Source of the DNA: an uncultured Candidatus Saccharibacteria bacterium
GTDB taxonomy: Bacteria > Patescibacteriota > Minisyncoccia > Minisyncoccales > Staskawiczbacteraceae
Assembly (NCBI GenBank): GCA_964404005.1
Contig: CAYOIH010000001.1
Location: 226 to 64,225, forward strand
DNA: 64,000 nucleotides
Direction of reading: 5' to 3'
Part shown: positions 1 to 29,307 of the stretch, one piece after another
Layout: the number at the start of each line of letters is the position of its first letter
Position numbering within the stretch: the first letter of the stretch is position 1
The notes under the pieces: generated by a model
Seen by the model: only the letters and a program-made list of their open reading frames with translations
What the model was told of the DNA's origin: nothing
The model's database searches: none
Program-made: the position numbers and the translations under genes

Positions 1-4
1 TGGT

Positions 5-358: not shown

Positions 359-375
359 TCTGCCCTTCGCCAAGG

Positions 376-2705: not shown

Positions 2706-3224
2706 ATGTTAAAACAGCAGATACAAAATTCTACTAAAGAAGCCATGAAAGCTGGAGATCAGTTTTTGGTTGGAACTTTGCGTATGTTGTCGGCTTCTAT
2801 TCTTACAAAGGAAAAAGAAAAGCGATATAAAACTTCCAAAGATCACCCGGATTTTGCAGAAGATAAGTTGCTAAAAGAATCAGAATTAACAGACGAGCAG
2901 ATAATTGAGGTTATATCTTCTGAAATTAAAAAAAGAAAAGACGCCGTTGTTTTATACGAACAGGGCAATAGGCAGGAGCTGGCAGACAAAGAAAAAAAGG
3001 AAATTGAAATTTTAATTAAATATCTGCCCGAGCAATTGTCCGAAGACGAATTAAAAAAAATGGTTGAAGAATCAATTGCAAAAGTTAGGGTCGAAATGAA
3101 GGACCCTTCGACAAGCTCAGGGCAAGTTATGGGGAAAGTAATGGCAGATTTAAATCCAAAGATTAAGGGCAAAGCAGACGGCGGGGAGGTAAGTAAAATT
3201 GTAAAAGAACTATTATCTAAATAA
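2706..3224 (+). CDS. yqeY: GatB/YqeY domain protein
   Basis: YqeY-like N-terminal pattern (LKQQIQNSTKEAMKAGD...LRML), ~150 aa Glu/Lys-rich; contains in-frame family-1 repeat (PSTSSGQ). Confidence 0.65.
   Translation: MLKQQIQNSTKEAMKAGDQFLVGTLRMLSASILTKEKEKRYKTSKDHPDFAEDKLLKESELTDEQIIEVISSEIKKRKDAVVLYEQGNRQELADKEKKEIEILIKYLPEQLSEDELKKMVEESIAKVRVEMKDPSTSSGQVMGKVMADLNPKIKGKADGGEVSKIVKELLSK
3104..3124 (+). repeat. family-1 repeat copy (in yqeY, sense)
   Basis: cccttcgacaagctcagggca. Confidence 0.8.
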
Positions 3225-5154: not shown

Positions 5155-5160
5155 GGTTTT

Positions 5161-13988: not shown

Positions 13989-14014
13989 TTTTTATTTTAT
14001 TAATTTTTTTATTT

Positions 14015-15304
14015 ATGCAGTACAATTTTTCAGCGCCAGACATAAAAGGTATTAAAAATAAAATCGTAAAAGTTATAAAAAACAGAAAACTGTGGGCGGG
14101 AGTGGGCTTGGTTATAATAGGATGCGTGGCAGGTATAGCAGTTTTTCATTATTTCCCGTCTCAAACAGACGCGTTTTTGCAATATTTTCAAATGCCGGCA
14201 ACCCAGATTTCTAAAACTACCGGCCAGCCGACGGCAAACCAGTATGTTTCAAGCGTTTCTTATGAGCAGGCGGTAATTGACGCGGCAAAAAATGTTTCGC
14301 CCTCTGTTGTTAGTATTGTGATTTCAAAAAATGTTCCTGTCTATGAGCAACAATTTGTAAATCCGTTTGGCGAAACATTTCCGGAGTTTAATTTTCAGAT
14401 TCCTCAACAGGTGCAAAACGGAACGAAATACCAGGAAGTCGGAGCCGGCTCAGGTTTTATAGTTTCAGTAGACGGTTTGGTTTTAACAAACAAGCACGTT
14501 GTATCTGACAGTAAAGCAGATTACACCGTTTTTACAAATGACGGACAAAAATATCCGGCAAAAGTTTTGGCGTTAGACCCCGTGCAGGATTTGGCTGTTA
14601 TAAAAATAGAACCGCAAGAAGGAAAAACGTTTCAAGCAGTGACGTTGGGAGATTCTGACGGCGTGCAGATAGGCCAAACGGCAATTGCTATTGGAAACGC
14701 GCTGGGGCAATTTTCCAACACAGTTTCTGTGGGCGTGGTTTCCGGTCTTGAAAGGACAATTTCCGCTTCCGACCAAGTCGGTTCGTTTTTTGAAACATTG
14801 GAAAATATTATTCAGACAGACGCGGCAATTAACGCGGGAAATTCCGGAGGGCCCTTATTAAATCTGAAAGGTGAGGTTATTGGGATTGATACTGCCATGG
14901 CGCAAGGAGCCCAGGATATTGGTTTTGCAATACCGATTAATATGGCAAAAAAAGATATAGAGCAGGTTAAGGCAACAAACAAAATTGTTTACCCGTTTTT
15001 AGGAGTAAGATATGTTCTGGTTGATGACCAAGTAAAACAAAAATATAATTTGTCTGTAGATTACGGGGCTTTGGTTCTAAAAGGAAGCAAGGGAGAGGTG
15101 GCTGTGACTTCGGGGTCTGCGGCAGAAAAAGCCGGCGTAAAAGAAAACGACATTATTTTGGAATTAAACGGGCAAAAGATTACTAAAGACAGTTCTCTTT
15201 CAAACATGCTTTTAAATTATAACCCAGGCGACACGGTTTCCTTAAAAATTTTGCGCGACGGAGAGGAGACGAATATAGACGTTGTGCTGGGCGAGAGGAG
15301 TTAG
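14015..15304 (+). CDS. htrA: HtrA/DegP family serine protease with PDZ domain
   Basis: TNKHVV (His), D, GNSGGPLLN (Ser) catalytic triad motifs; C-terminal PDZ; N-terminal TM. Confidence 0.85.
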   Translation: MQYNFSAPDIKGIKNKIVKVIKNRKLWAGVGLVIIGCVAGIAVFHYFPSQTDAFLQYFQMPATQISKTTGQPTANQYVSSVSYEQAVIDAAKNVSPSVVSIVISKNVPVYEQQFVNPFGETFPEFNFQIPQQVQNGTKYQEVGAGSGFIVSVDGLVLTNKHVVSDSKADYTVFTNDGQKYPAKVLALDPVQDLAVIKIEPQEGKTFQAVTLGDSDGVQIGQTAIAIGNALGQFSNTVSVGVVSGLERTISASDQVGSFFETLENIIQTDAAINAGNSGGPLLNLKGEVIGIDTAMAQGAQDIGFAIPINMAKKDIEQVKATNKIVYPFLGVRYVLVDDQVKQKYNLSVDYGALVLKGSKGEVAVTSGSAAEKAGVKENDIILELNGQKITKDSSLSNMLLNYNPGDTVSLKILRDGEETNIDVVLGERS

Positions 15305-15378
15305 TAAAATTTATATTATAAGCTAAAAAAAGCAGGCTGTTATGATGGTCTGTTTTTTATTTTTGTGGGGACATTGAG

Positions 15379-15405
15379 TTATCACTCTTGACTTGAGAGT
15401 GCTAT
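15379..15405 (+). promoter_or_regulatory. CIRCE-like HrcA operator upstream of clpB
   Basis: TTATCACTC-N9-GAGTGCTAT vs CIRCE consensus TTAGCACTC-N9-GAGTGCTAA (2 mismatches, arms nearly perfectly inverted). Confidence 0.7.
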
Positions 15406-15433
15406 TGATTTATCATAAAGTTTGAGCTAAAAT
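15405..15433 (+). promoter_or_regulatory. sigma70-like promoter abutting CIRCE
   Basis: TTGATT - 17 nt - TAAAAT. Confidence 0.45.
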
Positions 15434-15465
15434 AGAAATATAAAACGTAATAATAATATTGAATC

Positions 15466-15555
15466 ACCCTTCGGCAAGCTCAGGGCGCTTCGACTCCGCA
15501 AATTAAATACTTGCGCTGAGCGGAGCCTGAGTCAGACGAAGGCGGAGTCGAAGCG
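15466..15555 (+). repeat. structured palindromic element in clpB 5' leader built on a family-1 repeat copy; sequesters the SD
   Basis: gcttcgactccgc (15487-15499) is perfectly complementary to gcggagtcgaagc (15542-15554), which overlaps the GGAG SD just before the GTG start at 15555; 5' part ccttcggcaagctcagggc is family-1 consensus. Confidence 0.55.
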
Positions 15556-18281
15556 TGAACGGATCAAATTTTACAAACAAGGCTCAAGATGCGCTGATGC
15601 AAGCCCAACAATTGGCTCAGGAAAAAGGGCAGTCGCAGATTGACGCCTTGCATTTGCTTTATGTGTTGCTTGTGCAAGAAGGCAGTATTATAACTACAAT
15701 TTTACAAAAACTCGGTATAGATGGAGACTCTTTAAATAAAAAAGTTGAGTCTCAAATTGCAAAAATTCCGACAACTTTATCTCCGCAGGCATTCGGGCAG
15801 TTTTATCTTACGCAGGACATGGCAAAAGTTTTAGACCGTGCCAGGCAGGAGGCGATAAAAATGAACGATGAATTTATTTCCGTCGAGCATTTATTTTTAG
15901 CGCTTTTAGATACAAAATCAGGAGCTAAAGATATTTTAGAAAAAATTAACTTTATATCCGGATCTTCCGGAGCAGCGGAAGGAAGCAACCTGAAGAATTC
16001 TAAACTTGATTACGAAGTTGTAATAAAAATTTTGTCGCAGATAAGAGGAGGGCAAAGGATTACAGACCCGGAGCCGGAATCAAAATACCAGGTAATCGAA
16101 AAATATACCAGAAACTTAACCAATTTGGCGTCTGCCGGAAAAATTGATCCGATAATCGGTAGGGATAATGAAATCAGAAGATTGATGCAAATAATTTCCA
16201 GAAGGACAAAAAATAATCCGGTGCTAATTGGAGAAGCCGGAGTCGGAAAAACAGCCATTGTTGAGGGGTTTGCCCAAAGAATTGCCAGGGGGAATGTGCC
16301 CGATTTTTTAAAGAACAAGGAAATAATTTCTTTGGATTTGGGTTCTATAATTGCGGGAACAAAATATCGAGGAGAATTTGAAACAAGAATTAAAGCGTTG
16401 TTAAAAGAGTTGTCACGGGCTGCAGGAAAATATATTTTATTTATTGATGAATTGCATACTTTAGTGGGAGCGGGGGCCGCAGAGGGAGCAATGGACGCTT
16501 CAAATCTTTTAAAGCCCGCATTATCCAGGGGAGAATTAAGAGCAATTGGAGCCACAACCACAAGAGAATATCAAAAATACATTGAACAGGACCCGGCTTT
16601 AGAAAGGAGATTTCAGCCGATTTATGTTCAAGAACCTAATGTGGAAGATGCCACCGCGATTTTGCGTGGAATTAAAGAAAAATATGAAGTCCATCATGGA
16701 GTGAAAATAAAAGATTCTGCTATTAAGGCCGCTGTTGAATTGGCAAGCAGATACATTGCCGACAGATTTTTGCCGGACAAAGCGGTTGATTTGATGGACG
16801 AGGCGGCTTCTGCTTTAAGGTTGGAAATTGAATCTGACCCGCAGGAATTGGAAAAATTTGACGAGGCGATTATGAAGCTTGAAATTGAAAAACAAGCGTT
16901 GCGACCCAGAGGGTACCCCGAGCAAGGCTCTGAAAGAAGGCTAAGAGTAATTGCCAGAGAGCTGGCGGATTTAAATGAAAAAACGAAATCATTGAGATTG
17001 AAATGGGGAGCTGAAAAGGAATTGATAAATAAAATAAAAGATATCAGGGAAAAACTGGACAATCTTTCCTACCAGACGGAAATTGCCCAAAGAGATGCGG
17101 ATTTGGAAAAAGTAGCTGAAATAAAATACGGGAAGATTCCGGAGTTATTGAAAGAACAGGCCGCGACAGAGCAAAAACTGATAAAAATACAAAAAGAGCA
17201 TAGATTTTTGAAGGAAGAAGTTACAGAAGAAGAGGTTGCCAAGGTTGTTTCCCGCTGGACCGGAATTCCGGTAATGCGTTTGATTACAGAAGAAGCGAAA
17301 AAATTAGAGACGATGGAAGACACCCTAAACAGGCGGGTAATCGGCCAGCAGGAAGCAATTTCAGCAATCTCAAGGGCTATCCGCAGGGCGAGAGCAGGAA
17401 TATCAGAGGAAGACAAGCCATTGGGCTCATTCCTGTTTTTGGGTCCCACCGGAGTTGGAAAAACGGAAACAGCTAGAGCCTTGGCGGAGTTTTTATTTGA
17501 TGATGAGAAAGCTATGATAAGGCTGGATATGTCAGAATATATGGAACGCCATACAGTTTCAAAAATTATAGGTTCCCCTCCAGGTTATGTTGGTTATGAA
17601 GAAGCCGGCCAACTGACAGAAAAAGTCAGAAGAAGACCGTATTCTGTTTTGCTGTTGGACGAAGTTGAAAAAGCTCACCCCGATGTTTTTAACATTTTAT
17701 TGCAGATTTTTGAAGACGGAAGATTAACAGACTCAAGGGGAAGAGTGGTGTCATTTAAAAATACAATTATTATAATGACTTCTAACTTGGGTTCAGATTA
17801 CATAAACAAAATGTCGTCTATCGGATTTAACACCAGAGAAGAATTGGTTCAAAGAGAATCAATGCGGGAAAAAATATTTGATTCTCTGCGCGACGCATTC
17901 AGGCCGGAGTTTTTGAACAGAATTGATGAAGTTGTGATATTCAATTATTTGCAGAAAGCGCAAATAAAAACGATCGTTGACTTAGAGTTATCCAAGGTTG
18001 AAAAGCGCTTGGCCTCAAAAGAAATTAAAATTGAGATTTCAGAAAAAGCCAAAGAATTTTTGGTAAAAGAAGGCTTTGATCCTAACTTGGGTGCGCGTCC
18101 CCTAAAAAGAGTAATTCAGCGTTTAATTTTAGATCCATTATCTATAAAAATCGTTACCAACGAAATTACAGAGGGTTCACGAATTTTAATCGACGAGAAA
18201 GACGGCAAGATGGTTTTTGAGGTGCCGCGGCAACTGCCCAGAATGAGGTCGGCGCCAAGATTGGCAAAAATAAAAAAATAA
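15555..18281 (+). CDS. clpB: ATP-dependent chaperone ClpB
   Basis: two AAA+ modules (GEAGVGKTA Walker A; GPTGVGKTE second Walker A), coiled-coil M-domain, ~908 aa; GTG start. Confidence 0.9.
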   Translation: MNGSNFTNKAQDALMQAQQLAQEKGQSQIDALHLLYVLLVQEGSIITTILQKLGIDGDSLNKKVESQIAKIPTTLSPQAFGQFYLTQDMAKVLDRARQEAIKMNDEFISVEHLFLALLDTKSGAKDILEKINFISGSSGAAEGSNLKNSKLDYEVVIKILSQIRGGQRITDPEPESKYQVIEKYTRNLTNLASAGKIDPIIGRDNEIRRLMQIISRRTKNNPVLIGEAGVGKTAIVEGFAQRIARGNVPDFLKNKEIISLDLGSIIAGTKYRGEFETRIKALLKELSRAAGKYILFIDELHTLVGAGAAEGAMDASNLLKPALSRGELRAIGATTTREYQKYIEQDPALERRFQPIYVQEPNVEDATAILRGIKEKYEVHHGVKIKDSAIKAAVELASRYIADRFLPDKAVDLMDEAASALRLEIESDPQELEKFDEAIMKLEIEKQALRPRGYPEQGSERRLRVIARELADLNEKTKSLRLKWGAEKELINKIKDIREKLDNLSYQTEIAQRDADLEKVAEIKYGKIPELLKEQAATEQKLIKIQKEHRFLKEEVTEEEVAKVVSRWTGIPVMRLITEEAKKLETMEDTLNRRVIGQQEAISAISRAIRRARAGISEEDKPLGSFLFLGPTGVGKTETARALAEFLFDDEKAMIRLDMSEYMERHTVSKIIGSPPGYVGYEEAGQLTEKVRRRPYSVLLLDEVEKAHPDVFNILLQIFEDGRLTDSRGRVVSFKNTIIIMTSNLGSDYINKMSSIGFNTREELVQRESMREKIFDSLRDAFRPEFLNRIDEVVIFNYLQKAQIKTIVDLELSKVEKRLASKEIKIEISEKAKEFLVKEGFDPNLGARPLKRVIQRLILDPLSIKIVTNEITEGSRILIDEKDGKMVFEVPRQLPRMRSAPRLAKIKK

Positions 18282-18334
18282 AGTTACACTAAAAAATCGT
18301 CTAAGTAGCGATTTCTGCGCAGAAAGTTGGTGTT

Positions 18335-18571
18335 ATGTCGGACTTAACACCAACTACTTTATGTGGAGCAGTAGACAAAACCGATTTAGACCAATATGGC
18401 AGGTGCTTGTGGTATATATTTATAAATAATACCAATATTGATGTGCAACTGGTAAAAGAAGGCCTGGCGATTGCGCGTTTTTATGAACCGGATGTAAAAT
18501 ACAAAGCAGAAATAACAGCAGCCGAAAAATATGCCCAGCAAAATAGTATTGGCTGTAAATGGGTAAAATAA
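18335..18571 (+). pseudogene. staphylococcal/micrococcal nuclease (SNase) C-terminal remnant
   Basis: YGRCLWYIF...VQLVKEGLAIARFYEPD...AEKYAQQNSIGCW matches SNase C-terminal half; N-terminal catalytic half and signal peptide absent. Confidence 0.5.
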
Positions 18572-18624
18572 GCGGTTTGACTTCAATTTCTAAAAAATTG
18601 TAAGATAAGAAAACTATTGCAATT

Positions 18625-20589
18625 ATGATGAAGCTTTTCCCCGGAAAGCATTTTTTTGTTTTCTTCGCCAGTGTTTTTATTACAGTTTTTGTGGGATTTT
18701 TTGCCTGGAGCGCAGTGATGAGCGTTGGAGGTGATTTTGTTAATAAAATTTTAAGCTACGCAGACAAAATCAGCGCAGAATTTTTTCCGGCTTCTATTTT
18801 GCAAAAAGAGCCTCAAATTGGCGATATAATATCTGACGTCAATCTTGCCTCCTATAATGATGTCGATGAAGCGCCCGCAGAAGAAGTGATACAAAATCCA
18901 CCCATTATTGAAGGAAGCAGGCAGGATTTATTAGACGATATTCAGGAAAAATTAGATATAATCCAAAGCCAGGTCAATGCTTTGCTCGAGGAAAATGGCA
19001 TGAAAGAAGACATCCAGCAGGACGACCAAGACGCAGACAAAGAAGACCAAGATAAGCAGGAAGAGGACAAAATTAAAGAAGCAGTTGTTTGTACCGGGCA
19101 AATAAATATAAATACCGCTTTGGCCGAAGATTTGGAAAAAATAACTGGAGTGGGCCCGGTAACAGCTCAAAAAATAATACAAGCCCGTCCATTTTATTCG
19201 TTTGAAGATTTGTTAAAAGTGAGCGGTATAGGAGAAAAAACTTTGCAAAAAATAATAGAGCAAGGTTGCGCTTATATCGATTCGGGTTTAGTGCCACCGG
19301 GCCCAGGGGGTACCCCGGGTGGCGGAGGTGGCGGCTCTGCGCCGGTTATTTATCCGAAAATTTTAATTTCAGAGGTGCAGATAGCTGGCGGAACCGATGA
19401 AAAACAAGAATTTGTAGAACTATACAATCCAAATAACACAGACGTTAGTCTAACTGATTGGTATCTGCAAAAGCAAACAAGCAGCGGAAATGTTAGTTAT
19501 TTTGGTAAAAAATCTTTATTTTCGGGTCAAAAAATATTTGCCAACGGGTATTTTTTAATTGCCAGGGCAGGTTATTTTTCGGATTTAAATCCTCTTTCAG
19601 TTAGCACCGCCCTTTCAGATAACAGCTCGTTAATTTTTAGAAACCCCAACGATGGTATCTCCGACGAGGTTAGCTGGTCGCAAATTCCAGCAGGTTTGTC
19701 CTGGGGGAGAAAATGGGATTCGACCAATAATACGGAACAAGATTTTGAAATAGACACCCCAACTTCAAAAACACAAAATACAGTTTTTGTACCCCCAGAT
19801 ATAACCGCGCCAATAATCACCCTAAATAGCACCTCTGAAATTACAATTGATGTCGGTGATGTTTATAACGATGCGGGAGCAACGGCCCTAGATGATATAG
19901 ACGGGGATGTCACAGCAAATATAATAGCCGTCAACCCAGTCGATGCCAATACGACAGGAGATTATATAATTACTTACAATGTTTCTGATGCGGCAGGAAA
20001 TGATGCTGTTGAAGTTACGAGGTCTATCCACGTTGTTGCAGTAGTCCCACCGCCCCCATCGCCAACAGATATAACTCCACCAACTGGGACGATAATAATA
20101 AATGATGGAGCATTATATGTGAACAATAAAAACGTAACTCTAAATCTTTCAGCAAGTGACGTTTCGGGAGTTGTGCAAATGCGATTTAGTAATGGAGGCG
20201 CATACAGCGAGTTTGAGCCATACGCTGATACAAAGCAATGGGCGTTGTCATCTTCCGGCGACGGTGATAAGACAGTCAGAGTAAAGTTTACGGATGGCGT
20301 AGGCAACGAAAATAGTCCTGGTATTCCTGCAAAAATAATTTTAGATACTGCGCCTCCGATTATCACCTTAAATGGCGATGACGTAATAAATCTTAACGTT
20401 AGCGATACATATCAAGAACTTGGTGCTGCTATTGCAGACGTAAATTCGGATGTTTTAATAATCGGTGGTGATACTGTAGATACATCTGCGTCCAATACTT
20501 TTTACATAACTTACGATACGGTTGATTTGGCAGGGAATAGTGCTATACAAGTTATAAGAACCGTAATAGTAAATGAAATAGAAAATTAA
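18625..20589 (+). CDS. membrane-anchored multidomain protein: ComEA-like HhH DNA-binding region + Gly linker + lamin-tail domain + two Ig-like (DUF5011-type) repeats
   Basis: N-terminal TM; acidic stretch; INTALAEDLEKITGVGPVTAQKII...LLKVSGIGEKTLQKI (tandem HhH as in ComEA); GGTPGGGGGG linker; ISEVQIAGGTDEKQEFVELYNPNNTDVSLTDWYLQ (LTD); two ~80-aa repeats DITAPIITLN.../DTAPPIITLNG... Confidence 0.6.
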   Translation: MMKLFPGKHFFVFFASVFITVFVGFFAWSAVMSVGGDFVNKILSYADKISAEFFPASILQKEPQIGDIISDVNLASYNDVDEAPAEEVIQNPPIIEGSRQDLLDDIQEKLDIIQSQVNALLEENGMKEDIQQDDQDADKEDQDKQEEDKIKEAVVCTGQININTALAEDLEKITGVGPVTAQKIIQARPFYSFEDLLKVSGIGEKTLQKIIEQGCAYIDSGLVPPGPGGTPGGGGGGSAPVIYPKILISEVQIAGGTDEKQEFVELYNPNNTDVSLTDWYLQKQTSSGNVSYFGKKSLFSGQKIFANGYFLIARAGYFSDLNPLSVSTALSDNSSLIFRNPNDGISDEVSWSQIPAGLSWGRKWDSTNNTEQDFEIDTPTSKTQNTVFVPPDITAPIITLNSTSEITIDVGDVYNDAGATALDDIDGDVTANIIAVNPVDANTTGDYIITYNVSDAAGNDAVEVTRSIHVVAVVPPPPSPTDITPPTGTIIINDGALYVNNKNVTLNLSASDVSGVVQMRFSNGGAYSEFEPYADTKQWALSSSGDGDKTVRVKFTDGVGNENSPGIPAKIILDTAPPIITLNGDDVINLNVSDTYQELGAAIADVNSDVLIIGGDTVDTSASNTFYITYDTVDLAGNSAIQVIRTVIVNEIEN

Positions 20590-21654
20590 ATGGATTTAGG
20601 TAATTTAGAAAAAGTTTTGGAAAATGAGCCGGAGTATCGCTTAAAACAGGCGAGAGAAGCGGTTTATAAAAATTTTATCTCTGATTGGTCAGAGGCAACT
20701 TTTTTTACAAAAGATTTACGAGATAAGTTAAATAAAGAATGTCCGCTAAAAATTGAGGCAGATGTTTTAATTTCAAAAAAAGAAGACAGCGTAAAAGCTA
20801 GGATTACCCTAAAAGACGGATTAAAAATTGAAGCTGTTTTAATGCGTCATAAAGATGGCAGGAATACCGTTTGCGTTTCTTCGCAGGTTGGATGCCCTTT
20901 GGGATGCCTTTTTTGTGCCACAGGAAAAATGGGTTTTAAAAGAAATTTAACTTCTGATGAAATTTTAGAGCAGGTGATATTTTTTAGTCGGTATCTAAAA
21001 AATATCACCCTGAGCGAAGTCGAAGGGTCATCCATGCGTGTGACTAATGTCACTTATATGGGAATGGGAGAGCCGTTTTTGAATTATGAAAATGTTTTAA
21101 AATCTATAAGAATTTTAAATAATAAAGACTTTTTTAATATCGGGGCCCGGTCAATTTCTGTTTCAACAGCTGGGATTATTGAGGGTATAAAAAAGTTTAG
21201 CGAAGAAGGTTTACAGCTAAATCTGGCGATTTCTCTACATGCGTCGAACAACGAACTCAGAAAATCTTTAATGCCAATAAGTAAAAAATATTCATTGGAA
21301 GATGTTTTAAGGGCAGTTGATGAATATATTGAGAAAACTAAAAGAAAAGTGATGTTTGAGTATGTTTTAATTGACGGCGTTAACGACTCTGAAGAACACG
21401 CTCAAGAGCTAGCAAAATTAATGCGCAACCCTTCGACTTCGCTCAGGGCAAGGAAATTATATTTTTTAAACTTAATTCTTTACAACGCAACCCCGCCTTC
21501 TTCGGGGCAAGCAGAAATATTTAAGCCTTCAAAAACAAAAAACGTTGAAAAGTTTAAATCTATTTTAGAAAAAAACAAGGTTAATTTTGTTCAGCGTTAC
21601 AGGTTTGGTGATGACATAAACGCGGCTTGTGGGCAATTTGTCACCAATAAATAA
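20590..21654 (+). CDS. rlmN: 23S rRNA/tRNA adenine-C2 methyltransferase RlmN (radical SAM)
   Basis: VCVSSQVGCPLGCLFCATG radical-SAM cluster, MGMGEPFLNYENV; contains two family-1 repeat copies in opposite orientation. Confidence 0.8.
   Translation: MDLGNLEKVLENEPEYRLKQAREAVYKNFISDWSEATFFTKDLRDKLNKECPLKIEADVLISKKEDSVKARITLKDGLKIEAVLMRHKDGRNTVCVSSQVGCPLGCLFCATGKMGFKRNLTSDEILEQVIFFSRYLKNITLSEVEGSSMRVTNVTYMGMGEPFLNYENVLKSIRILNNKDFFNIGARSISVSTAGIIEGIKKFSEEGLQLNLAISLHASNNELRKSLMPISKKYSLEDVLRAVDEYIEKTKRKVMFEYVLIDGVNDSEEHAQELAKLMRNPSTSLRARKLYFLNLILYNATPPSSGQAEIFKPSKTKNVEKFKSILEKNKVNFVQRYRFGDDINAACGQFVTNK
21006..21027 (-). repeat. family-1 repeat copy (in rlmN, antisense)
   Basis: revcomp = cccttcgacttcgctcagggtg. 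Confidence 0.8.
21429..21453 (+). repeat. family-1 repeat copy (in rlmN, sense)
   Basis: cccttcgacttcgctcagggcaagg. Confidence 0.8.
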
Positions 21655-21688
21655 ACAAAAAACCGAGCCACCGAGCTCGGTTTTTTGT
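21655..21688 (+). terminator. Rho-independent terminator
   Basis: aaaaaaccgagccaccgagctcggttttttg. Confidence 0.75.
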
Positions 21689-21757
21689 TTGGTTATCCAC
21701 AGGTGAAGTATTTCTAAGATTATGATACAATTACAAAACGCATAAAAATGCGCTTTA

Positions 21758-21871
21758 CCCCGTTAGAGATCATTAGGGGTAGGGTTTAGTTATTTTTAAA
21801 TATTGCGAATCAGTTTTGGATCGTAAAGACGTTTTTTAAATTTTTTTGTGGGCAATAAATCTCTAACGGGG
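21758..21871. repeat. family-2 inverted-repeat element (13-nt perfect TIRs, 88-nt spacer)
   Basis: ccccgttagagat (21758-21770) ... atctctaacgggg (21859-21871). Confidence 0.55.
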
Positions 21872-21906
21872 TTTACTTTTATTTTTTTTCTTGTTAGATT
21901 TTAGGA

Positions 21907-22632
21907 ATGCAAGATAAATTTCTAAACCCCGTTAGAAAGGCCGAGTTATCTGGACAAGATAATGTTTTTGGAAATAATGAGAAAGAAATACAACATGGAC
22001 AATCATTTTTAGAAATTTCTAAAAAAGAAATTTCTAAAAACAGGCTTTCTAACGGGGTAAAACTAACAAACACAGTTTATAAAGTGCTTGAGTTTTTTCC
22101 GGAATCAGATCCGTTAAAAAACAGGGCAAAAGATCGGGTGTTATCCATAATGGAGTATCTGACACTGATTGATAAAGGCAGTAATGATTCTGTAATTAAA
22201 ACTCATATTTCAGAAGATATAGATGTGCTTTTGGGCTATCTTTGGATAGGCAAATCGCAGGGTTGGTTAAACTCGTCTAACTGCCTTATAATCTCTAATG
22301 AATATGAAAAAATAACCCTTCAGCTTCGTTCAGGGCAGGAAAAAGAAATAGAACCGGCGATACCCGACAAAAGTCCCGCCGTTGCGGGACAATTTGACGG
22401 GCCCGCCATAATCTCGCCAATGGCGAGTTTGGGCGGGGAGCAGTTAGGCACTCGGCAGAAAAAAATTCTTGAATTTTTAGGTAAAAATGAAAAAGCGCAG
22501 GTTATGGATTTACGGGCGATATTGTCGGATGTCACAAAGAGAACCATAAGAAGGGATTTAGACGAATTACTTGAAGCCGGTAAAATAGTAAGATTGGGGG
22601 AGTTTAATCAAGTTTTTTACAAGACTAAGTGA
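21907..22632 (+). CDS. hypothetical protein with C-terminal winged-helix/DeoR-like HTH; N-terminal ~50 codons overlap a family-2 IR element so true start uncertain
   Basis: C-terminus QKKILEFLGKNEKAQVMDLRAILSDVTKRTIRRDLDELLEAGKIV is DeoR-N/HTH-like; carries family-1 copy (LQLRSGQ). Confidence 0.4.
   Translation: MQDKFLNPVRKAELSGQDNVFGNNEKEIQHGQSFLEISKKEISKNRLSNGVKLTNTVYKVLEFFPESDPLKNRAKDRVLSIMEYLTLIDKGSNDSVIKTHISEDIDVLLGYLWIGKSQGWLNSSNCLIISNEYEKITLQLRSGQEKEIEPAIPDKSPAVAGQFDGPAIISPMASLGGEQLGTRQKKILEFLGKNEKAQVMDLRAILSDVTKRTIRRDLDELLEAGKIVRLGEFNQVFYKTK
21927..22058. repeat. family-2 inverted-repeat element (13-nt perfect TIRs, 106-nt spacer)
   Basis: ccccgttagaaag (21927-21939) ... ctttctaacgggg (22046-22058). 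Confidence 0.55.
22317..22339 (+). repeat. family-1 repeat copy (in HTH ORF)
   Basis: ccttcagcttcgttcagggcagg. Confidence 0.75.
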
Positions 22633-22778
22633 TAGGACAAGGTGGGACAAAGATATATATAGATAGGACATTAAGTTAAATAGGTATGTCCTACCTGCCT
22701 CGCCAGTCAAGGCGGTGGTCTAAAATATGGGTAAAAAGCTTGTGTTTTTATAATATTTGTGCTAATATTTAACCTTAA

Positions 22779-23306
22779 ATGGCAGATAGCCTAAACGAAC
22801 AATTTAGCCAGATTTACGACCAATATATTGATAAAATATATAGGTTTGTTTATTTAAAGGTCAGCTCCCAAGAAATGGCCGAGGATATTGTGTCTAAGGT
22901 GTTTTTAAGGGGTTTTGAGGCCTATAAGGCTCAATATCAAACACCCAACACCCAACACCCAATTCAAAATCCGGGTGCCTTTCTATACCAAATAGCCAGA
23001 AACGCGGTTGTAGACCACTACAGAGACAAGGGGAGGTCAAAGGTTGTATCGGTTGACCTTGGCCCGGAAATAGTTGACCCGGGGACAAATGCCCAGGATA
23101 AGGCTATTTTAAGCGCTGATATTACTAATATTAGAAAGGCCATACAAAAGCTTAAAAAAGAGCACCAGGACATAATTATATGGCATTATTTAGAGGATAT
23201 GCCAATTACTGATATCGCCGAGCTATTGGGCAAGCCGGCTGGGACAGTGAGGGTGGCACTGCATAGGGGGCTAAAAGAGCTTAAAGATATAATCCAAGAG
23301 TCATAA
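22779..23306 (+). CDS. ECF-subfamily RNA polymerase sigma-70 factor
   Basis: region 2 (FLYQIARNAVVDHYRDKGR) and region 4 HTH (ITDIAELLGKPAGTVRVALHRGLKELK). Confidence 0.8.
   Translation: MADSLNEQFSQIYDQYIDKIYRFVYLKVSSQEMAEDIVSKVFLRGFEAYKAQYQTPNTQHPIQNPGAFLYQIARNAVVDHYRDKGRSKVVSVDLGPEIVDPGTNAQDKAILSADITNIRKAIQKLKKEHQDIIIWHYLEDMPITDIAELLGKPAGTVRVALHRGLKELKDIIQES
22941..22962 (+). repeat. 7-nt tandem repeat (cacccaa x3) inside ECF sigma coding sequence
   Basis: a|cacccaa|cacccaa|cacccaa; gain/loss of one unit would frameshift. Confidence 0.7.
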
Positions 23307-23342
23307 TCTACAGATTCCCGGAGTCTGTAATTGCTCAAGGCT

Positions 23343-23353
23343 TCTAACGGGGT
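23343..23353. repeat. solo half-site of family-2 element
   Basis: ttctaacgggg without partner within 300 nt. Confidence 0.35.
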
Positions 23354-23397
23354 GTAACAAAACAGCCATCTCAAGCGTCATACTTATAAAGCACACA

Positions 23398-24159
23398 ATG
23401 ACAAAAATAACACAAAAAAAACTTATAGAGTCGTTGTCGCAACTCAAAGAAATAAAACCCAGGAAAGAATGGGCTGTTTTGCTTAAGTCGCAAATCTTGG
23501 CTTCGCCCGCCGAAGCTTTAGCGCAGGAGGGCAGAAAAGCATTGGTTCAAAAAACCAGTATTTTAGATATTTTCTCTTCGGTGTTCTTCCCCTTCGGCGG
23601 GCTCAGGGCAGGCAGAAAATTGGCATATGCTTTTTCAGTCATTCTTTTGTTTGTTGTAGGGGTTTTTGGGTTTGCTGAATATACAGTTCCCGGGGACATG
23701 CTATTCCCGATGAAAAAAATTGCCGAGCAGTCGCAGGCAGCTTTGACAGGACAAACCAAATTAAATCAAGACGTCGCAACGCTAAATAGCAGAATAAACG
23801 ATTTGGCCCAAGTTGCAAAAGCAGGGAGAAAAGACAACATTCCTTCGGCAATAAGTGAGGTTTCAGCAAACGCATCACAGTTGGCAAAAAGCTTAAAAGA
23901 TAATCCTGTAAACGACCCGCAGACACTTAAAGAAATTGCGATTAGTTTAAAAACATTAGCCGACGTACAGGGAACTGACTTAACCGCTACGCCTGGCATA
24001 AGCGACCTTTATCAGACATTAGACCAAAACGAGATTAACGATTACCAAAAAACAACTTTAACAGAAGACCAGCAGAATATATTGGCTGAAGCAGAAGATT
24101 TATACAGTCAGGGGAAATATTATGAAGCGTTCGAAAAAATATTAACAATAGGTAATTAA
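23398..24159 (+). CDS. putative membrane-anchored anti-sigma factor (by position downstream of ECF sigma)
   Basis: single TM (YAFSVILLFVVGVFGFA) after a short cytoplasmic N-domain; carries family-1 copy (FPFGGLRAG). Confidence 0.35.
   Translation: MTKITQKKLIESLSQLKEIKPRKEWAVLLKSQILASPAEALAQEGRKALVQKTSILDIFSSVFFPFGGLRAGRKLAYAFSVILLFVVGVFGFAEYTVPGDMLFPMKKIAEQSQAALTGQTKLNQDVATLNSRINDLAQVAKAGRKDNIPSAISEVSANASQLAKSLKDNPVNDPQTLKEIAISLKTLADVQGTDLTATPGISDLYQTLDQNEINDYQKTTLTEDQQNILAEAEDLYSQGKYYEAFEKILTIGN
23591..23613 (+). repeat. family-1 repeat copy (in putative anti-sigma gene)
   Basis: ccttcggcgggctcagggcaggc. Confidence 0.8.
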
Positions 24160-24217
24160 AATTATAACTGACTCGGCAAGAAACTCGTACTTTTTTGCCG
24201 ATTATTAAAAAAATAAC

Positions 24218-24357
24218 ATTTGACGAGTCGTTTGTTCGTGATTAGTACGCTCGCCCCGTTAGAAATCTGCGGTAAAAACCGCGAATTTCTAACGGGGTAA
24301 ATCGCGAGCTATAGATAAATTAAATATTTGACGAGTCGTTTGTTCGTGATTAGTACG
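24218..24357 (+). repeat. 32-nt perfect direct repeat (24218-24249 / 24326-24357) flanking a family-2 IR element (24254-24296)
   Basis: atttgacgagtcgtttgttcgtgattagtacg x2; between them ccccgttagaaat-ctgcggtaaaaaccgcga-atttctaacgggg. Confidence 0.65.
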
Positions 24358-24474: not shown

Positions 24475-26424
24475 ATGAGTATTAAAAGAACAATTATAAC
24501 AACCATATTGGCATTGGCCTTGGTTGCAACAGTTGCTCCTGCAACAACTCAAGCTACAACAATTGACGATTTGTTAGTTCAAATCGCTTCACTTCAAGCT
24601 CAGTTGGTAGCCCTACAAGGAGGCAGCAGCACACCAGTTCCAACTGGAATAGTTGCTTGCTCAGGAGTTACATTCACAAGAGATTTAACAGTTGGCGCAA
24701 CAGGATCAGATGTAAAATGCTTACAGGTCCTTTTAAACACCAACGGCTATACACTTGCAACAGCAGGAGCAGGATCACCTGGGATGGAAACATCTTACTT
24801 TGGTCCAATAACCTTGTCGGCTGTTAGAGCATTCCAGGCAGCAAAAGGATGGACACCTGCAAATCAGGTTGGCCCATTAACAAGAGCAGCATTAAATACA
24901 CTTATCGGTACAACACCGACAACACCAGTTACCCCAACAGCAGGATGCCCGGCAGGAGCAGTTTATAACTCCGTAACCGGAGCATTATGCACAGTAGCAA
25001 CACCTGGAGCAACAGGATTTATTGATGCAGGTACATTGTCTCCTTCGCCAGCAGATAACGCAAATGTTATAACAACATCAAACGTTCCTGTGTTAGGATT
25101 AAATGTTAAAGCAATCGGCTCTAACATGACAGTTACCAGCGCAAAGGTTCAGTTAGCAATAAGTACTGGAGAGCATCCAGCCAACGTAGTGCAAAACCTT
25201 TATGTCTATGACGGAAGCACATTATTGGGTTCATACCCGGTTAATACAAGCACCGTTGTCAAGACCACAACCACTTACTATTTAATCTTGTCAGGATTCA
25301 ACTTTATGGTTCCTGTCAACACTACAAAAGTATTGACTGTTACAGCTGACTTCAATCCATCATTAGAAACAAGCAGAACCCTAACAGTTAACTTGGTTGA
25401 TACGTCTTCATTAAGAGCAGTTGACGGAGCCGGAGTATATACAACCGGTGGCGTAGCTACAGCCAGAACCTACGTAATAGCATACGCAACTGTTGGAACC
25501 TCAACACTGGCAGTTACCACTAACGTTTCTACTCTTGATTCAACTTCGGTTAATGTAAACCACACCAGCGGCAGAACAGATGTTCCAATGTTTATTTTCA
25601 GCGCAAAATCGTCAACAGGAGCTTCTACAATAACAGACTTAGTCCTTACAGCTCAGGGAGATGCCACAGGAATTGCATCAATGTCAGCTGTAAAATTGTA
25701 TGACGGTTCAACATTATTGGGTTCGGTTGCATTAAGCAGCGCAGTATCTGGAGCAACAGCTACATTTACTGACCTTTCAATCCCTGTAGCAAAAGATGCT
25801 ACAAAAACATTTACTGTAAAGGCAGACTTTTCAGCAGCTGTAACTCAAAGCACTTTGGGTGTAAACTTGTCTATATTAATTCCGGCTCACGACGTTACTT
25901 TCGACGAACCGAATTTGACATCAGCACATCCTACAGCATCTGCAGCAGTCTCCGGAAACGCTATGTATTTGTATGACGGTGTAGCAACAACATTTACACT
26001 TGTTAGCGCATCATCTTTATATGAATACAACTCCACAGTGCCGTCAACGTCTTGGACAACAGGTACAATTACCTTGAAGGTTCACTCAGACGGTGGAACT
26101 ACAGTAATGCCACTTTCTGCGCACTTCACAGTTAATGCCTACAGAAACGGTAGCTCAATGGGAGCAGCAGTCACACAGTCTATTACAGTAACACCAGAGT
26201 CTACTATTTCTGATGGCAGTGACGCAGTAGTAGTTATCAATCTTTCAGAGCCAGTAGGATCTGTGGCAGCCGGCGTGGTAGACTCTTTCTCTGGCACTGG
26301 TGCTATTGATTTCAGAGTAGACAGCATTTCATGGCAGTGTTCAGATGGTACACTTACATCCACAGAAGCAAGTCAGGATTGGGGAATATCTACCTTCAAG
26401 ACACCTACAGCAAACGCTCAGTAA
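24475..26424 (+). CDS. secreted Thr/Ser/Ala-rich surface protein with N-terminal peptidoglycan-binding domain (PG_binding_1) and three ~150-aa beta-rich repeats
   Basis: signal peptide; GATGSDVKCLQVLLNTNGY...FGPITLSAVRAFQAAKGW (PGBD); repeated YVYDGSTLLGS / KLYDGSTLLGS / YLYDGVATT modules. Confidence 0.55.
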   Translation: MSIKRTIITTILALALVATVAPATTQATTIDDLLVQIASLQAQLVALQGGSSTPVPTGIVACSGVTFTRDLTVGATGSDVKCLQVLLNTNGYTLATAGAGSPGMETSYFGPITLSAVRAFQAAKGWTPANQVGPLTRAALNTLIGTTPTTPVTPTAGCPAGAVYNSVTGALCTVATPGATGFIDAGTLSPSPADNANVITTSNVPVLGLNVKAIGSNMTVTSAKVQLAISTGEHPANVVQNLYVYDGSTLLGSYPVNTSTVVKTTTTYYLILSGFNFMVPVNTTKVLTVTADFNPSLETSRTLTVNLVDTSSLRAVDGAGVYTTGGVATARTYVIAYATVGTSTLAVTTNVSTLDSTSVNVNHTSGRTDVPMFIFSAKSSTGASTITDLVLTAQGDATGIASMSAVKLYDGSTLLGSVALSSAVSGATATFTDLSIPVAKDATKTFTVKADFSAAVTQSTLGVNLSILIPAHDVTFDEPNLTSAHPTASAAVSGNAMYLYDGVATTFTLVSASSLYEYNSTVPSTSWTTGTITLKVHSDGGTTVMPLSAHFTVNAYRNGSSMGAAVTQSITVTPESTISDGSDAVVVINLSEPVGSVAAGVVDSFSGTGAIDFRVDSISWQCSDGTLTSTEASQDWGISTFKTPTANAQ

Positions 26425-26570: not shown

Positions 26571-26990
26571 TTAATCAGCGTTATTTAATGTCTTAATAGT
26601 ATGTATATATCTTTTAATTATTATTTTCTGTGGGCTGAAATTTATTAGAAATCCTAATTGGTATTTTGACCCTTTCAAGTACCCCCAGAATTGCTTTTCA
26701 TCTTCTTTGGTTGTAAATGACTTAGATTTTAATTCTACTATAATTTTGTTTTCCACAATTATATCCGGAATGTATACGCCAATTTTTTCGTTATTATAGT
26801 AGATATCAATTCTTTTTTCTTTTTCTATTGCCAAGTCGGAAGAAGTTAATTCATTGCATAACGCTCGCTGTATAATTTTTTCTTTAATTCCTCCGCCCAG
26901 AGCATTGTAAACTTTAAAACAAGCCCCTCTGATTTTATAGGATTCTTTTTCATATAATAAATTATCTGTATAAATCTGTTTAATCGGCAT
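26571..26990 (-). CDS. GxxExxY-family small protein (PD-(D/E)xK-like fold)
   Basis: SYKIRGACFKVYNALGGGIKEKIIQRAL ... YIPDIIVENKIIVELK pattern; flanked by 13-nt direct repeat c(c/g)gcataaatcag at 26546-26558 and 26985-26997. Confidence 0.45.
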   Translation of the reverse strand: MPIKQIYTDNLLYEKESYKIRGACFKVYNALGGGIKEKIIQRALCNELTSSDLAIEKEKRIDIYYNNEKIGVYIPDIIVENKIIVELKSKSFTTKEDEKQFWGYLKGSKYQLGFLINFSPQKIIIKRYIHTIKTLNNAD

Positions 26991-29307
26991 AAATCAGTGT
27001 AGATAGAAAGCTATCTATCTGGTCTTCCAGCTCAGGATTTGATTTAATAACTTCCGAAGCAATTTGTCTGGCCATGTTATAATTTCCTAATTCTTTGTAA
27101 ATAAGCATTATAGAAGTTTTGTATTGTATTTGTGAGCCGTTTATTACAAATAGTTTTTGATACAGGGGAAGCATTTCTTTATAGTTTTTGGTTTCCAAAT
27201 AAGCAGCCACCAGTTGCCTTAAAGAAATTTCATTTTCAACAGAATATCCGTCTTCTTTTGCTTTTTCTACAAATTCTTTTCCCGTTTTAACATCTCCCAA
27301 ATAAATATTAATTAATCCGGACATCCATAGGCAATCGCGGATTTTTGGGAATGTTTTTAAACAATAAACAGATTTTTCCTTTGCTCCCTTTAAATCTCCA
27401 AAAGAGACGTCAGCCATAAAAAAACTAAAAAGAATTGAGGGGTCTCTGGGGCTTAGTTCCATAGCCCTCTTAAAAGCTTCGTCGGACTTTTTTATAATTT
27501 CCGGGTCTTTGTTTTCTTTTGCGATTGTTGCCAGAGATTCTCCCAAGCGTAACCAATTTCTGTAGTCATATGGTTGTAATATTGTATTCTCTCCGGAAAT
27601 TTCTTTAACTTTTTGTGAAACAGAGCTATTTTCTTCGGGATGCGCAATAATCCTGTCTATTAGCAAATTTAAATAAACAGAATTGGCATAGGGGAGGAAA
27701 AAGGTGTTTATTTTGGACTGTTCATCCATAATTTTTATAGTATCTTTCCAGTTTTTCGATGATTCTGCCCGCGCAATAACAATTTGTTTATTCATTTGTA
27801 GAGGAATAAGATTATATTGCCATAAGAATATTATTAATATCAAAAATAAAATGACTATTATTATTGGTTTCCACCAGGTACTGTTTTTAGGTTCAGCGTT
27901 TTTCAGCGCCGTTATCAGCGTAGCATCAGCATTATTCAATGAAATTAAATGCAGTGAATAAGCAGATAAAAAGAAAAAAATAAGCATAATAGCAGCGCCG
28001 TCAATGGACGCCAAGCCAGCTATAAAAAAAGCTATGAATCCCGCTTGTAGTCCATGGGCAACCGGGTATTTTTTCTTGATTTTTTGGAGGCCCCATAATA
28101 ATGAAAGGAAAAAAACAAGGTAAAAAATTAAAGCAAAAATTCCGGAATCAACCAAAATTTGTATTAAATAATTATGCGCCCTGTCAAAATCTTTTATGTC
28201 TTCCATTGCAGGCAAATTGGGGTCATAGTGTTTGTTGAAAGCAACGTAAAAGTTTTCCGGCCCATATCCAAAATATGGCTTTTCAAAAAAAGCCGATATC
28301 GATATTTTCCAGGCAGATATTCTTGACGGGTCAACTGCAGCGCCTGTTGTCAGCGATGCTGTCCGGCCGACAGTGTCTTTTATTAAGTTGGGCATCCCTG
28401 CATAAATTTGAGGGTTGGCACTTAAAAAGAAAAGAAAAAAAATAAATACCATTGGTAAAACTACGGCACTTATTTTTAACCACTTAAATTTTTTAGGACT
28501 CGCCCCGTTAGAGATTACATTATCTCTAGCGGGGTAAAAAATTAAAAAACAAAAAAGTCCAACCAACATGCCTAAAATAGCAGCTCTTGTTTGGGTTATA
28601 AAAATAATTACAAAAGAATAAAAAATAACAAGGAACAAATAAGAGTATTTTTTTACTTTATTTGCTTCTGATATAAAAAATGATAAAGAAAGAAAAAGAA
28701 GCGGTAAAAGGTAAAGAGCAAGAATTATTGGATTTCCCAATGTTGAGCTTGGCCTGTAAGTTGTTACGGCCAGAAATGATGCAAAAAATCCAAATTGCTG
28801 AAGGACAGCTATTAACCCTACCAAAAATCCGATAATCAATGAAAAATCAAGCAGTTTTTTCCAGCTTGCCTCGCCCGTTGGCGGGTCTTCTTTTTTTATA
28901 ATTGAAAAACAGAAGATGCAGAAAAGGATAAAAAACGAAAAATTAATAAATCCGGCGCCTCTTTCTGGGGTTCCCCATAAACTACGGGAAACATCCAGGG
29001 AAAATAATGTTGAAATAAAAACCGCGAAGAAATATGCCAAAAGCGAAATTAACGGAAGAAAGGTTTTCGTGTGCGGATTAAAAACTTCTTTAAAATTTAC
29101 CTGCCCTGAGCCGTGCCGAAGGGTTTTTTCTTTAACCAAATAAATAAAACCCAAAACCGCCAATAGCGACCTAAAAACAATGGCCTGTGTGTATGCCGAG
29201 GGAGTAAACCATGGCGGAACATTTAAAGCCGGCAAGGCTAATATTATAAAGAACCCAGCTATATATAACCAGTAAAAATTGTTACTTTTTTCGTTGATTT
29301 TAGCCAT
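26980..29307 (-). CDS. Wzy_C/O-antigen-ligase-family membrane protein with C-terminal TPR repeats (possible protein O-oligosaccharyltransferase)
   Basis: ~12 TM helices, ITQTRAAILGMLVGL Wzy_C motif, C-terminal TPR-like helical repeats; contains in-frame family-1 (TLRHGSGQ) and family-2 (PARDNVISNG) repeats. Confidence 0.6.
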   Translation of the reverse strand: MAKINEKSNNFYWLYIAGFFIILALPALNVPPWFTPSAYTQAIVFRSLLAVLGFIYLVKEKTLRHGSGQVNFKEVFNPHTKTFLPLISLLAYFFAVFISTLFSLDVSRSLWGTPERGAGFINFSFFILFCIFCFSIIKKEDPPTGEASWKKLLDFSLIIGFLVGLIAVLQQFGFFASFLAVTTYRPSSTLGNPIILALYLLPLLFLSLSFFISEANKVKKYSYLFLVIFYSFVIIFITQTRAAILGMLVGLFCFLIFYPARDNVISNGASPKKFKWLKISAVVLPMVFIFFLFFLSANPQIYAGMPNLIKDTVGRTASLTTGAAVDPSRISAWKISISAFFEKPYFGYGPENFYVAFNKHYDPNLPAMEDIKDFDRAHNYLIQILVDSGIFALIFYLVFFLSLLWGLQKIKKKYPVAHGLQAGFIAFFIAGLASIDGAAIMLIFFFLSAYSLHLISLNNADATLITALKNAEPKNSTWWKPIIIVILFLILIIFLWQYNLIPLQMNKQIVIARAESSKNWKDTIKIMDEQSKINTFFLPYANSVYLNLLIDRIIAHPEENSSVSQKVKEISGENTILQPYDYRNWLRLGESLATIAKENKDPEIIKKSDEAFKRAMELSPRDPSILFSFFMADVSFGDLKGAKEKSVYCLKTFPKIRDCLWMSGLINIYLGDVKTGKEFVEKAKEDGYSVENEISLRQLVAAYLETKNYKEMLPLYQKLFVINGSQIQYKTSIMLIYKELGNYNMARQIASEVIKSNPELEDQIDSFLSTLIYAD
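28503..28534. repeat. family-2 inverted-repeat element, 6-nt spacer, in-frame inside Wzy_C gene
   Basis: ccccgttagagat tacatt atctctagcgggg (1 mismatch). Confidence 0.55.
29101..29122 (-). repeat. family-1 repeat copy (in Wzy_C gene, sense to that minus-strand gene)
   Basis: revcomp = ccttcggcacggctcagggcag. Confidence 0.8.

Follow-up and report, generated by a model that had tools for sequence, protein, structure and literature searches.

A perfect 20-nt inverted repeat within a single housekeeping gene raises the question of whether its two arms form a device or came together by chance. The repeat lies in rlmN, the gene for a 23S ribosomal RNA (rRNA) methyltransferase, in a 64-kb stretch of contig CAYOIH010000001.1 (assembly GCA_964404005.1; the whole of this stretch is hereafter the window) from an uncultured bacterium of the candidate phyla radiation (CPR). 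As a first-pass annotation of the sequence had reported, CCCTGAGCGAAGTCGAAGGG at 21008-21027 on the forward strand has its exact reverse complement, CCCTTCGACTTCGCTCAGGG, at 21429-21448, with a spacing of 401 nt, and the 20-mer had no match in 100 dinucleotide-preserving shuffles of the window even when up to three mismatches were allowed. The arms proved to be two copies, in opposite orientation, of one repeat family (family-1), which the same annotation had also recognized. Most probably, two copies of a tiny interspersed repeat that resembles repetitive extragenic palindromes (REPs) were inherited separately, and their pairing as an inverted repeat is due to chance.

Two sites in RlmN and their occupation

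The open reading frame (ORF) carrying both arms could be aligned over its whole length to solved chains of RlmN and Cfr, and its homologues in Candidatus Staskawiczbacteria (a Parcubacteria/CPR lineage) are named RlmN, 23S rRNA (adenine2503-C2)-methyltransferase. An identical RlmN protein was encoded on 21 contigs from different samples, and the three of these that were read (L206-L208) kept both copies unchanged, so that an assembly artefact is excluded. The arms had been placed in the radical S-adenosylmethionine (SAM) core, which holds for site 1, whose residues (about 138-149) fall within the Pfam Radical_SAM envelope (97-272), but not for site 2 (residues 279-286), which lies just C-terminal of that envelope and is still part of the catalytic domain alignable to the Cfr/RlmN structures. 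An AlphaFold model of RlmN (mean predicted local distance difference test score, pLDDT, of 80.6) located segments 143-152, 279-284, and 301-310 between secondary-structure elements, with low confidence at sites 1 and 3 and pLDDT below 50 at residues 144-146; the peptides of both arms accordingly fall in predicted loops, as the first reading of the sequence had proposed to check. The sequence of the Cfr structure showed a gap of 12 residues at site 1 and gaps of three residues at sites 2 and 3.

Positions 14000-24300 of the window were aligned to the syntenic relatives L001 (79% nucleotide identity) and L003 (76%), and family-1 copies in rlmN and two further genes appeared as clean indels (Table 1). 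The indel lengths (21, 24, and 27 nt) were all multiples of three and open in frame, and the insertions are therefore presumably translated. A consistent target-site duplication was absent from the four pairs of empty and filled sites. The window was also set apart from L001 and L003 in this interval by other GC-rich indels, 12-57 nt long, in frame and from different sequence families; examples are CCCAGAGGGTAC in clpB (16905-16916 of the window), CCGTAGCCCTACGGGC in L003, and, in L001, a block of 57 nt.

The 120 closest RlmN proteins ranged from 329 to 386 aa and differed mainly at three indel hot spots. Site 1 was a five-residue PENQR-like loop lacking the 27-nt block in about 45 of these orthologues, an antisense family-1 copy (LSE[AV]EG, partly decayed) in about 25-30, and a sense-frame copy in a few (KENPSTSLR, PEPFGSAQG). 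Site 2 was occupied by NPSTSLRA-like segments in 11 of the 120, and site 3 often held a canonical family-1 copy (HSTGSGQAG and similar). Occupied and empty states were interspersed on a neighbour-joining tree of 330 well-aligned columns. Occupancy thus differed by lineage, and the case that the first-pass annotation had named as a refutation, with these peptides in all orthologues, did not arise. The idea that the peptides are simply a conserved part of RlmN, or that the repeat is an error of sequencing or assembly, was rejected as virtually inconceivable: LSE[AV]EG and NPSTSLRA do recur in some orthologues, with nothing further in its favor, but each segment is missing from many orthologues (the shortest having 329-331 aa), the solved RlmN/Cfr sequences have gaps at these positions, the same DNA unit occurs in unrelated genes in other frames, and 21 independent contigs carry the identical sequence.

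The site 1 loop also hosts other palindromes. In L130, L132, L134, L126, and L003 it contained unrelated perfect in-frame palindromes, that of L130 being 50 nt long (GCAACAGACCCCCGAGGTCTGTCAG|CTGACAGACCTCGGGGGTCTGTTGC), and L130 and L132 had CTGACAGRYCTCGG in common. This suggests that several palindrome families compete for the same permissive RlmN loop.

The two rlmN sites were occupied independently. An antisense copy at site 1 occurred together with a copy at site 2 in three of the 120 orthologues (P0001, P0007, and P0024) vs. 2.75 expected under independence, and the closest relatives had one site each (site 1 only in L001, site 2 only in L003). In the other two both-site genes read as DNA, L209 and L210, the arms mismatched each other at three of 20 positions, and site 2 of L210 (TCCT...AGGA) was compensated within its own hairpin and not with the other arm. 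Nothing suggests that the pair acts as a unit, and such a role is not supported; the perfect match in the window exists because both copies are at the family consensus.

These data bear directly on the two functions that a pair could have. The arms had been predicted to anneal in the mRNA, and a 21-bp long-range helix was indeed present in the minimum-free-energy and centroid folds of naked RNA from 20980 to 21475 (z = -4.9 vs. shuffles). That the arms are maintained as a pair, with their 20-bp long-range helix regulating rlmN translation or mRNA stability, is nevertheless very improbable in view of the independent occupancy, the single-site relatives, and the arms of L209 and L210, which show no compensation between them; in addition, the helix is wholly within coding sequence and would presumably be opened by ribosomes during translation. 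Just as little probability attaches to the pair as a recombination substrate that would switch rlmN off by programmed or accidental inversion or deletion. Perfect 20-bp inverted repeats can recombine in principle, but 20 bp does not exceed the minimum that RecA-dependent exchange usually requires and may fall short of it, inversion of the internal 401-nt segment would wreck the reading-frame context, and the Pfam lists revealed no recombinase gene as a neighbour of rlmN. The recombination raised by the first-pass annotation also found no echo in L206-L208, where both copies had the same positions and orientations and where L207 was collinear with the window across rlmN at 99% identity.

The family-1 unit within and beyond the window

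The family-1 unit has the consensus 5'-CCCTTCGRCTYCGCTCAGGGCARG(C)-3' and a length of 24-25 nt. On the complementary strand, a C[CT]TG foot leads into a GC-rich stem of 4 bp (CCCT/AGGG), which is followed by a GA/GA internal loop, one G-C pair, and a short loop; with three of its four stem pairs G-C, the unit is a short imperfect palindrome with a GC-rich basal stem. Across 117 copies from other phyla, information started abruptly at position 1 and faded after position 25 (CAGGC tail), the flanks were unrelated, and tandem copies had a 24-nt period. Pairing was examined in 75 distinct aligned copies, none of them forced by the search pattern. Compensatory changes occurred at all five pairs (1-20, 2-19, 3-18, 4-17, and 7-14), giving 31 double-change cells vs. 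5.1 ± 1.9 in shuffles (0 of 500 reached 31), and the signal collapsed when the partner position was slid. T5, C6, T15, and C16 (TC/TC, or GA/GA on the other strand) were over 95% invariant. Wobble-pair asymmetry as a clue to the folding strand was not significant (13 vs. 8).

Among orthologous rlmN genes, the site 1 element showed 86-100% and the site 2 element 79-96% nucleotide identity, compared with 73-84% for the whole gene and 56-70% for synonymous third positions, and the codons adjoining the elements were hypervariable. Something holds the copies near the consensus; these data do not separate selection at the DNA or RNA level, correction of one copy against another, and re-insertion as candidate causes.

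A relaxed pattern, CCCTTCGRC-N3-4-GCTCAGGG, identified 11 copies in the window; the formula of the family adds (CARG) at the end. A sequence-free structural pattern (any GC-rich 4-bp stem, TC, a G/C or A/T pair around 5-6 nt, TC) also yielded 11 copies vs. 0.05 expected and added a stem variant at 15525, for a total of 12. Ten of the 12 were intragenic, in called or Pfam-supported genes; 94% of the window is coding, and family-1 thus gives no sign of avoiding genes. The location in a housekeeping gene, considered unusual in the first-pass annotation, is not so for this family, since SecA, YqeY, a second radical-SAM gene, and others also hold copies. The unit has no stop codon in five of its six frames. 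Three sense and two antisense frames were in use among the genic copies, which are presumably translated as short loop peptides, and the single stop-bearing frame (TGA, antisense) was never used. Eight of the 10 genic copies were sense to their gene. The CARG tail, 3' on the CCCTTCG strand, accompanied eight of the 11 window copies and was present at about 75% per position in the 117 copies from other phyla. Apart from one intergenic doublet (15467+/15525-), every genic copy was a singleton, the two in rlmN being 401 nt apart. No larger parent element was found around the copies, and the flanks they share are merely A-rich.

Other kinds of repeat were discarded for the window copies. No clustered regularly interspaced short palindromic repeat (CRISPR) array was present; for a polar motif of the FtsK-orienting (KOPS) or Chi type the unit is too long and its orientation (8:3) not significantly biased; and the arms are too short for the core site of a tyrosine recombinase.

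A scan of 185,579 species-representative genomes (596 Gb) returned at least 120 matches. Those listed included Acidobacteriota, Chloroflexota, Cyanobacteria, Planctomycetota, Verrucomicrobiota, Bacteroidota, Proteobacteria, Spirochaetes, Nitrospira, and CPR groups, isolates among them. By our own estimate, chance would yield on the order of 70-300 matches in 596 Gb; positions left free by the pattern were strongly biased (T10 85%, C12 74%, and A22/G24/C25 approximately 75-80%), and most matches are therefore true family members and not chance. Viral contigs gave the same picture as the bacterial phyla. Within the Parcubacteria the density was very uneven: 11 copies per 64 kb were present here, with similar values in L001 and L003, but hardly any in the majority of 80 further rlmN loci (approximately 0-1 per 10-20 kb). 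A 32-mer BLAST search of plasmids and phages gave mostly chance-level matches (E ~3) and one good match, on the Trichlorobacter lovleyi plasmid pIAE1 (L205). There, an IS91-like transposase gene adjoining a sul1/qacEdelta1 segment (3917-5284) carried two in-frame copies in opposite orientation (TSTSLSAG and ALSVVEG), inside the gene and not at its ends, with a second, identical copy context at 7268; the in-gene habit is therefore not limited to the CPR.

In a Kiritimatiellae locus (L076, 4630-4730 and 6450-6550), family-1 was part of a larger intergenic composite, GTCATTCCGAGCG...GAGGAATC...[family-1]...CTCTTCACTGCGTTCAGGATGAC, whose flanking units resemble diverged 24-nt relatives of family-1.

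Rfam gave no relevant match in the window at the gathering threshold and, at E <= 1, none overlapping the copies in seven loci rich in them. On this ground, an origin of family-1 from a universal RNA was rejected. Full-text literature searches with the DNA strings of the element or the peptides LSLSKG, PELVEG, FDKLR, FDFAQ, LRLRSGQ, and VILSEAK found nothing relevant, and broader searches returned general papers on REPs, Rickettsia palindromic elements (RPEs), and transposable elements of the miniature inverted-repeat type (MITEs) only. Such peptides are probably familiar in hypothetical proteins of spurious origin.

Table 1. Positions in the window of rlmN, the family-1 copies, and one further short repeat, with the state of each indel in the syntenic relatives L001 and L003
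Feature	Position	Strand	Sequence and context	Indel and relatives
rlmN, host gene	20590-21654	+	354 aa; three short extra loop segments relative to the shortest (331-aa) orthologues	
rlmN site 1, family-1 copy	21008-21027	-	Element strand CCCTTCGACTTCGCTCAGGG, antisense to gene; peptide T-LSEVEG-S; without the 3' CARG tail	27-nt block in window and L001; L003 holds the unrelated palindrome GCACCTATGTATAGGTGC instead
rlmN site 1, variable loop stretch	20998-21039	+	KNITLSEVEGSSMR; residues 137-150, flanked by helix 122-142 and strand 153-159; 9 codons more than the baseline PENQR-type loop	
rlmN site 2, 24-nt block	21426-21449	+	CAACCCTTCGACTTCGCTCAGGGC; sense family-1 copy 21429-21448 (to 21452 with CAAG tail); peptide NPSTSLRA	24 nt at 21426; in window and L003, absent in L001 (closest relative)
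rlmN site 3, 21-nt insertion	21493-21513	+	CCGCCTTCTTCGGGGCAAGCA; peptide PPSSGQA; degenerate relative, CCCCG...CGGGG stem, CAAGC tail	21 nt at ~21490; window only, absent in L001 and L003
Family-1 in YqeY-like gene (2706-3224)	3104-3126	+	Sense; peptide DPSTSSG	
Family-1 in radical-SAM gene (8616-9344)	9083-9105	+	CCATTCGACAGGCTCAGGGCAAA; sense	
Intergenic inverted doublet upstream of clpB	15467-15543		Copy 15467-15485 (+); stem variant GCCTTCGTCTGACTCAGGC 15525-15543 (-)	
Family-1 in DeoR helix-turn-helix (HTH) gene (21907-22632)	22316-22339	+	A7-T14 compensatory pair	Clean, 24 nt at 22316; in window and L001, absent in L003
Family-1 in DUF5667 gene (23398-24159)	23590-23612	+		Clean, 21 nt at 23591; in window, absent in L003 (not covered by L001)
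Family-1 in Wzy_C O-antigen-ligase-like gene (26980-29307, minus strand)	29100-29123	-	Sense to gene	
Family-1 in hypothetical gene (30128-30871)	30385-30407	-	CCCCTCGACAAGCTCGGGGCAAG; antisense to gene; stem pair T4-A17 changed to C-G	
Family-1 in PG_binding_1 protein gene (59377-61101)	60792-60814	+	Sense	
Family-1 in secA (63160 to past window end)	63302-63325	+	Sense; A7-T14 compensatory pair	
TCTAACGGGG / CCCCGTTAGA	21758-21767, 21862-21871, 21927, 22048, 23343, 24254, 24288, 28503, 52669, 52737	-, +, -, +, +, -, +, -, -, +		

Origin of the copies and relation to known repeats

Family-1 is probably REP-like and non-autonomous, with its copying and insertion carried out in trans. Its length in multiples of three and its five open frames would leave genes unbroken on insertion, and copies would persist where a surface loop tolerates 7-9 extra residues. 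The long-range duplex and the recombination potential of the rlmN pair would then be physical side effects and not the reason for the sequences. The most speculative step is that the element would be mobilized in the form of a hairpin of single-stranded DNA, the enzyme being an HUH tyrosine transposase of the REP-associated tyrosine transposase (RAYT) or TnpA-Y1 kind. Such enzymes recognize a short foot plus a hairpin and leave no target duplication, so that this mode would account for the missing duplication; mobilization in trans by an HUH/Y1-type enzyme is, even so, considered rather unlikely. A tblastn search with two Y1 queries (IS200/RAYT), a weak test, found no such gene in the window and two matches in 1.8 Mb (L063 and L152), both flanked by repeats other than family-1. 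L152 is a Parcubacteria contig, and its match (approximately 6650-7250) codes for a Y1 protein of RAYT/IS200-like type (HTH-type HuH motif, YSELNP) with inverted GGTGTCAACTCTGG repeats on its flanks; CPR bacteria therefore carry this enzyme class.

Several observations weigh against a REP-like mobile element. No transposase, REPtron, or other enzyme was linked to family-1, and the strain-level comparison (L206-L208) showed identical copies, with no fresh insertions or losses and no sign of current activity. The folding energy of single units, as DNA and as RNA, did not differ from shuffles (z ~0), so the claim of a hairpin rests on covariation. Copies at sites 2 and 3 always had the same position, orientation, and frame across orthologues, which fits one old insertion followed by many exact losses no worse than it fits repeated movement. 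Family-1 lacks the GT[AG]G/GTAG or CGTC tag of the two REP superfamilies, its foot being C[CT]TG, and it is mostly intragenic where REPs are predominantly extragenic. Conservation above that of synonymous sites could also reflect selection at the level of the host rather than selfish spread.

This last point is why a structured motif useful to the host, such as a protein-binding DNA or RNA hairpin acting in mRNA stabilization, chromosome organization, or DNA uptake, remains a serious if improbable rival; such a motif would be preserved by selection and put up with in coding loops. Beyond the conservation of orthologous copies far above synonymous sites, the stem covaries around an invariant 12-nt interior in the manner of protein-recognized hairpins, the sequence is nearly identical across phyla, and eight of 10 genic copies are sense. 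Against this, copies come as insertions and not as the substitutions by which uptake sequences arise, related CPR lineages differ greatly in copy density, genes have conserved copies in either orientation (site 1 being antisense), and the motif has no Rfam family match; we know of no candidate binding factor, and one common to so many phyla seems unlikely. The unrelated perfect palindromes at RlmN site 1 in other lineages (50 nt in L130, and those of L132, L134, L126, and L003) would instead suit an origin in which template switching or repair through hairpins creates each palindrome anew at a fragile site. Local templating cannot, however, account for one specific 24-nt sequence that recurs with unrelated flanks at unrelated loci and in different phyla, and this origin is given hardly any weight.

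The comparison to REPs, on which the preferred reading of separately inherited interspersed copies draws, has several supports. Family-1 shares with them a size of 20-40 nt, a short conserved foot beside a GC-rich hairpin, many dispersed copies, and stem covariation as expected for a recognized hairpin. Intragenic REPs have been described in Opitutus terrae, Rickettsia conorii, and Xanthomonas recB, where an ORF may hold two of them and related species may share the site (PMC3733652), and in-frame REP insertions are known within tnpA-REP genes (PMC6006769). REPs are described as species-specific (PMC6006769), whereas family-1 has nearly the same sequence in many phyla; it also occurs mostly as single copies and not as closely spaced doublets, with no associated RAYT gene found. 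REP-like hairpins flank the subclass 2.6 TnpA-Y1 gene of Planctomyces limnophilus (ADG68653.1; Quentin et al., 2018; PMC6006769 Table S1). This hairpin, GTGGCACG(T)CCCTGAGGTCTTCCGAAGGGCGTGGT, resembles family-1 in its CCCT/AGGG stem, GA/GA internal loop, inner G-C pairs, and small loop, and the two share CCCTGAG...CGAAGGG, a putative homology of 14 common letters. The P. limnophilus hairpin differs in its extra basal stem (CACG/CGTG), GTGG foot, and apical part (GG-TCTT-CC).

RPEs are in-frame palindromic repeats in protein genes, including housekeeping genes, and add translated segments to the protein where these are tolerated; RPE-1 measures about 100-150 bp and is confined to Rickettsia and its relatives. 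Family-1 is likewise an in-frame insertion into protein-coding genes at tolerated loop positions, but its unit is only 24-25 nt, far from the RPE length, and occurs in many phyla. Yeast mitochondrial GC clusters and the translational-bypass elements that derive from them are short GC-rich palindromic mobile units of an AT-rich genome that can also sit in coding regions. This system is organellar and eukaryotic, and, in contrast to family-1, whose genic insertions are all multiples of three and open in frame, its bypass elements can have any length because ribosomes skip them. Two further classes were rejected. MITEs have terminal inverted repeats of 15-30 bp, a length of 70-300 bp, and a target duplication, whereas family-1 is a sharp-edged unit of 24-25 nt with unrelated flanks and no consistent duplication; DNA uptake sequences (DUS) and uptake signal sequences (USS) accumulate by substitution in one lineage, whereas family-1 copies change gene length and occur in many phyla. 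Intragenic REPs, RPEs (the latter also mentioned in PMC3733652), and mitochondrial GC clusters are known precedents; family-1 differs from them in the very small multiple-of-three unit, the in-gene dominance, the new foot, and the near identity across phyla and viral contigs.

Other repeats of the window and implications

A second short motif, TCTAACGGGG / CCCCGTTAGA, had 10 exact occurrences in the window (Table 1) and 12 with one mismatch allowed vs. 2.1 expected. The majority of its copies form inverted pairs, 20-120 nt apart, in intergenic DNA close to gene starts. The motif may be another family of small repeats, or it may serve as an operator or promoter. Upstream of clpB (15467-15560), a 14-nt inverted repeat (CGCTTCGACTCCGC / GCGGAGTCGAAGCG) ending at the clpB start accompanies the family-1 doublet. 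A 35-nt direct repeat (24215-24249 and 24323-24357; 97% identical, 108 nt apart) is intergenic, ahead of the gene at 24475-26424. L207 and L208 were 99-100% identical to the window up to approximately 24.5-25.4 kb and then diverged sharply (beyond approximately 25370), the divergent part being a cell-surface/O-antigen region (PG_binding_1 and Wzy_C genes) and thus a hypervariable locus. At the opposite end of the window (1-360), the 3' end of ORF 5-358 was GC-richer than the 37% window average and had no Pfam match; a cluster of GC-rich 20-mers (208-388) and a terminator-like hairpin after the ORF (375-407) were also present, and this segment may be foreign DNA.

For rlmN, the tempting account of an RNA switch or inversion switch is removed, and the view of the pair as a device is largely explained away. 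Reduced CPR genomes can hold many tiny repeats in essential genes that are read as extra loop residues, which matters for the annotation and interpretation of indels in CPR proteins. Tentatively, and with the odds somewhat against it, family-1 may constitute an undescribed class of mobile or self-maintaining DNA: a 24-25-nt hairpin in multiples of three with an invariant interior and five of six frames open, found almost unchanged across phyla and in viral contigs, living inside genes, and dependent on a widely distributed trans-acting enzyme or on copy correction. In that case, much of the loop insertion seen in housekeeping proteins of some CPR lineages would stem from family-1 and its sister palindrome families. 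The presence of the same 24-nt unit in distant phyla and viral contigs, conserved more tightly than synonymous sites, points to a mechanism of spreading or correction.

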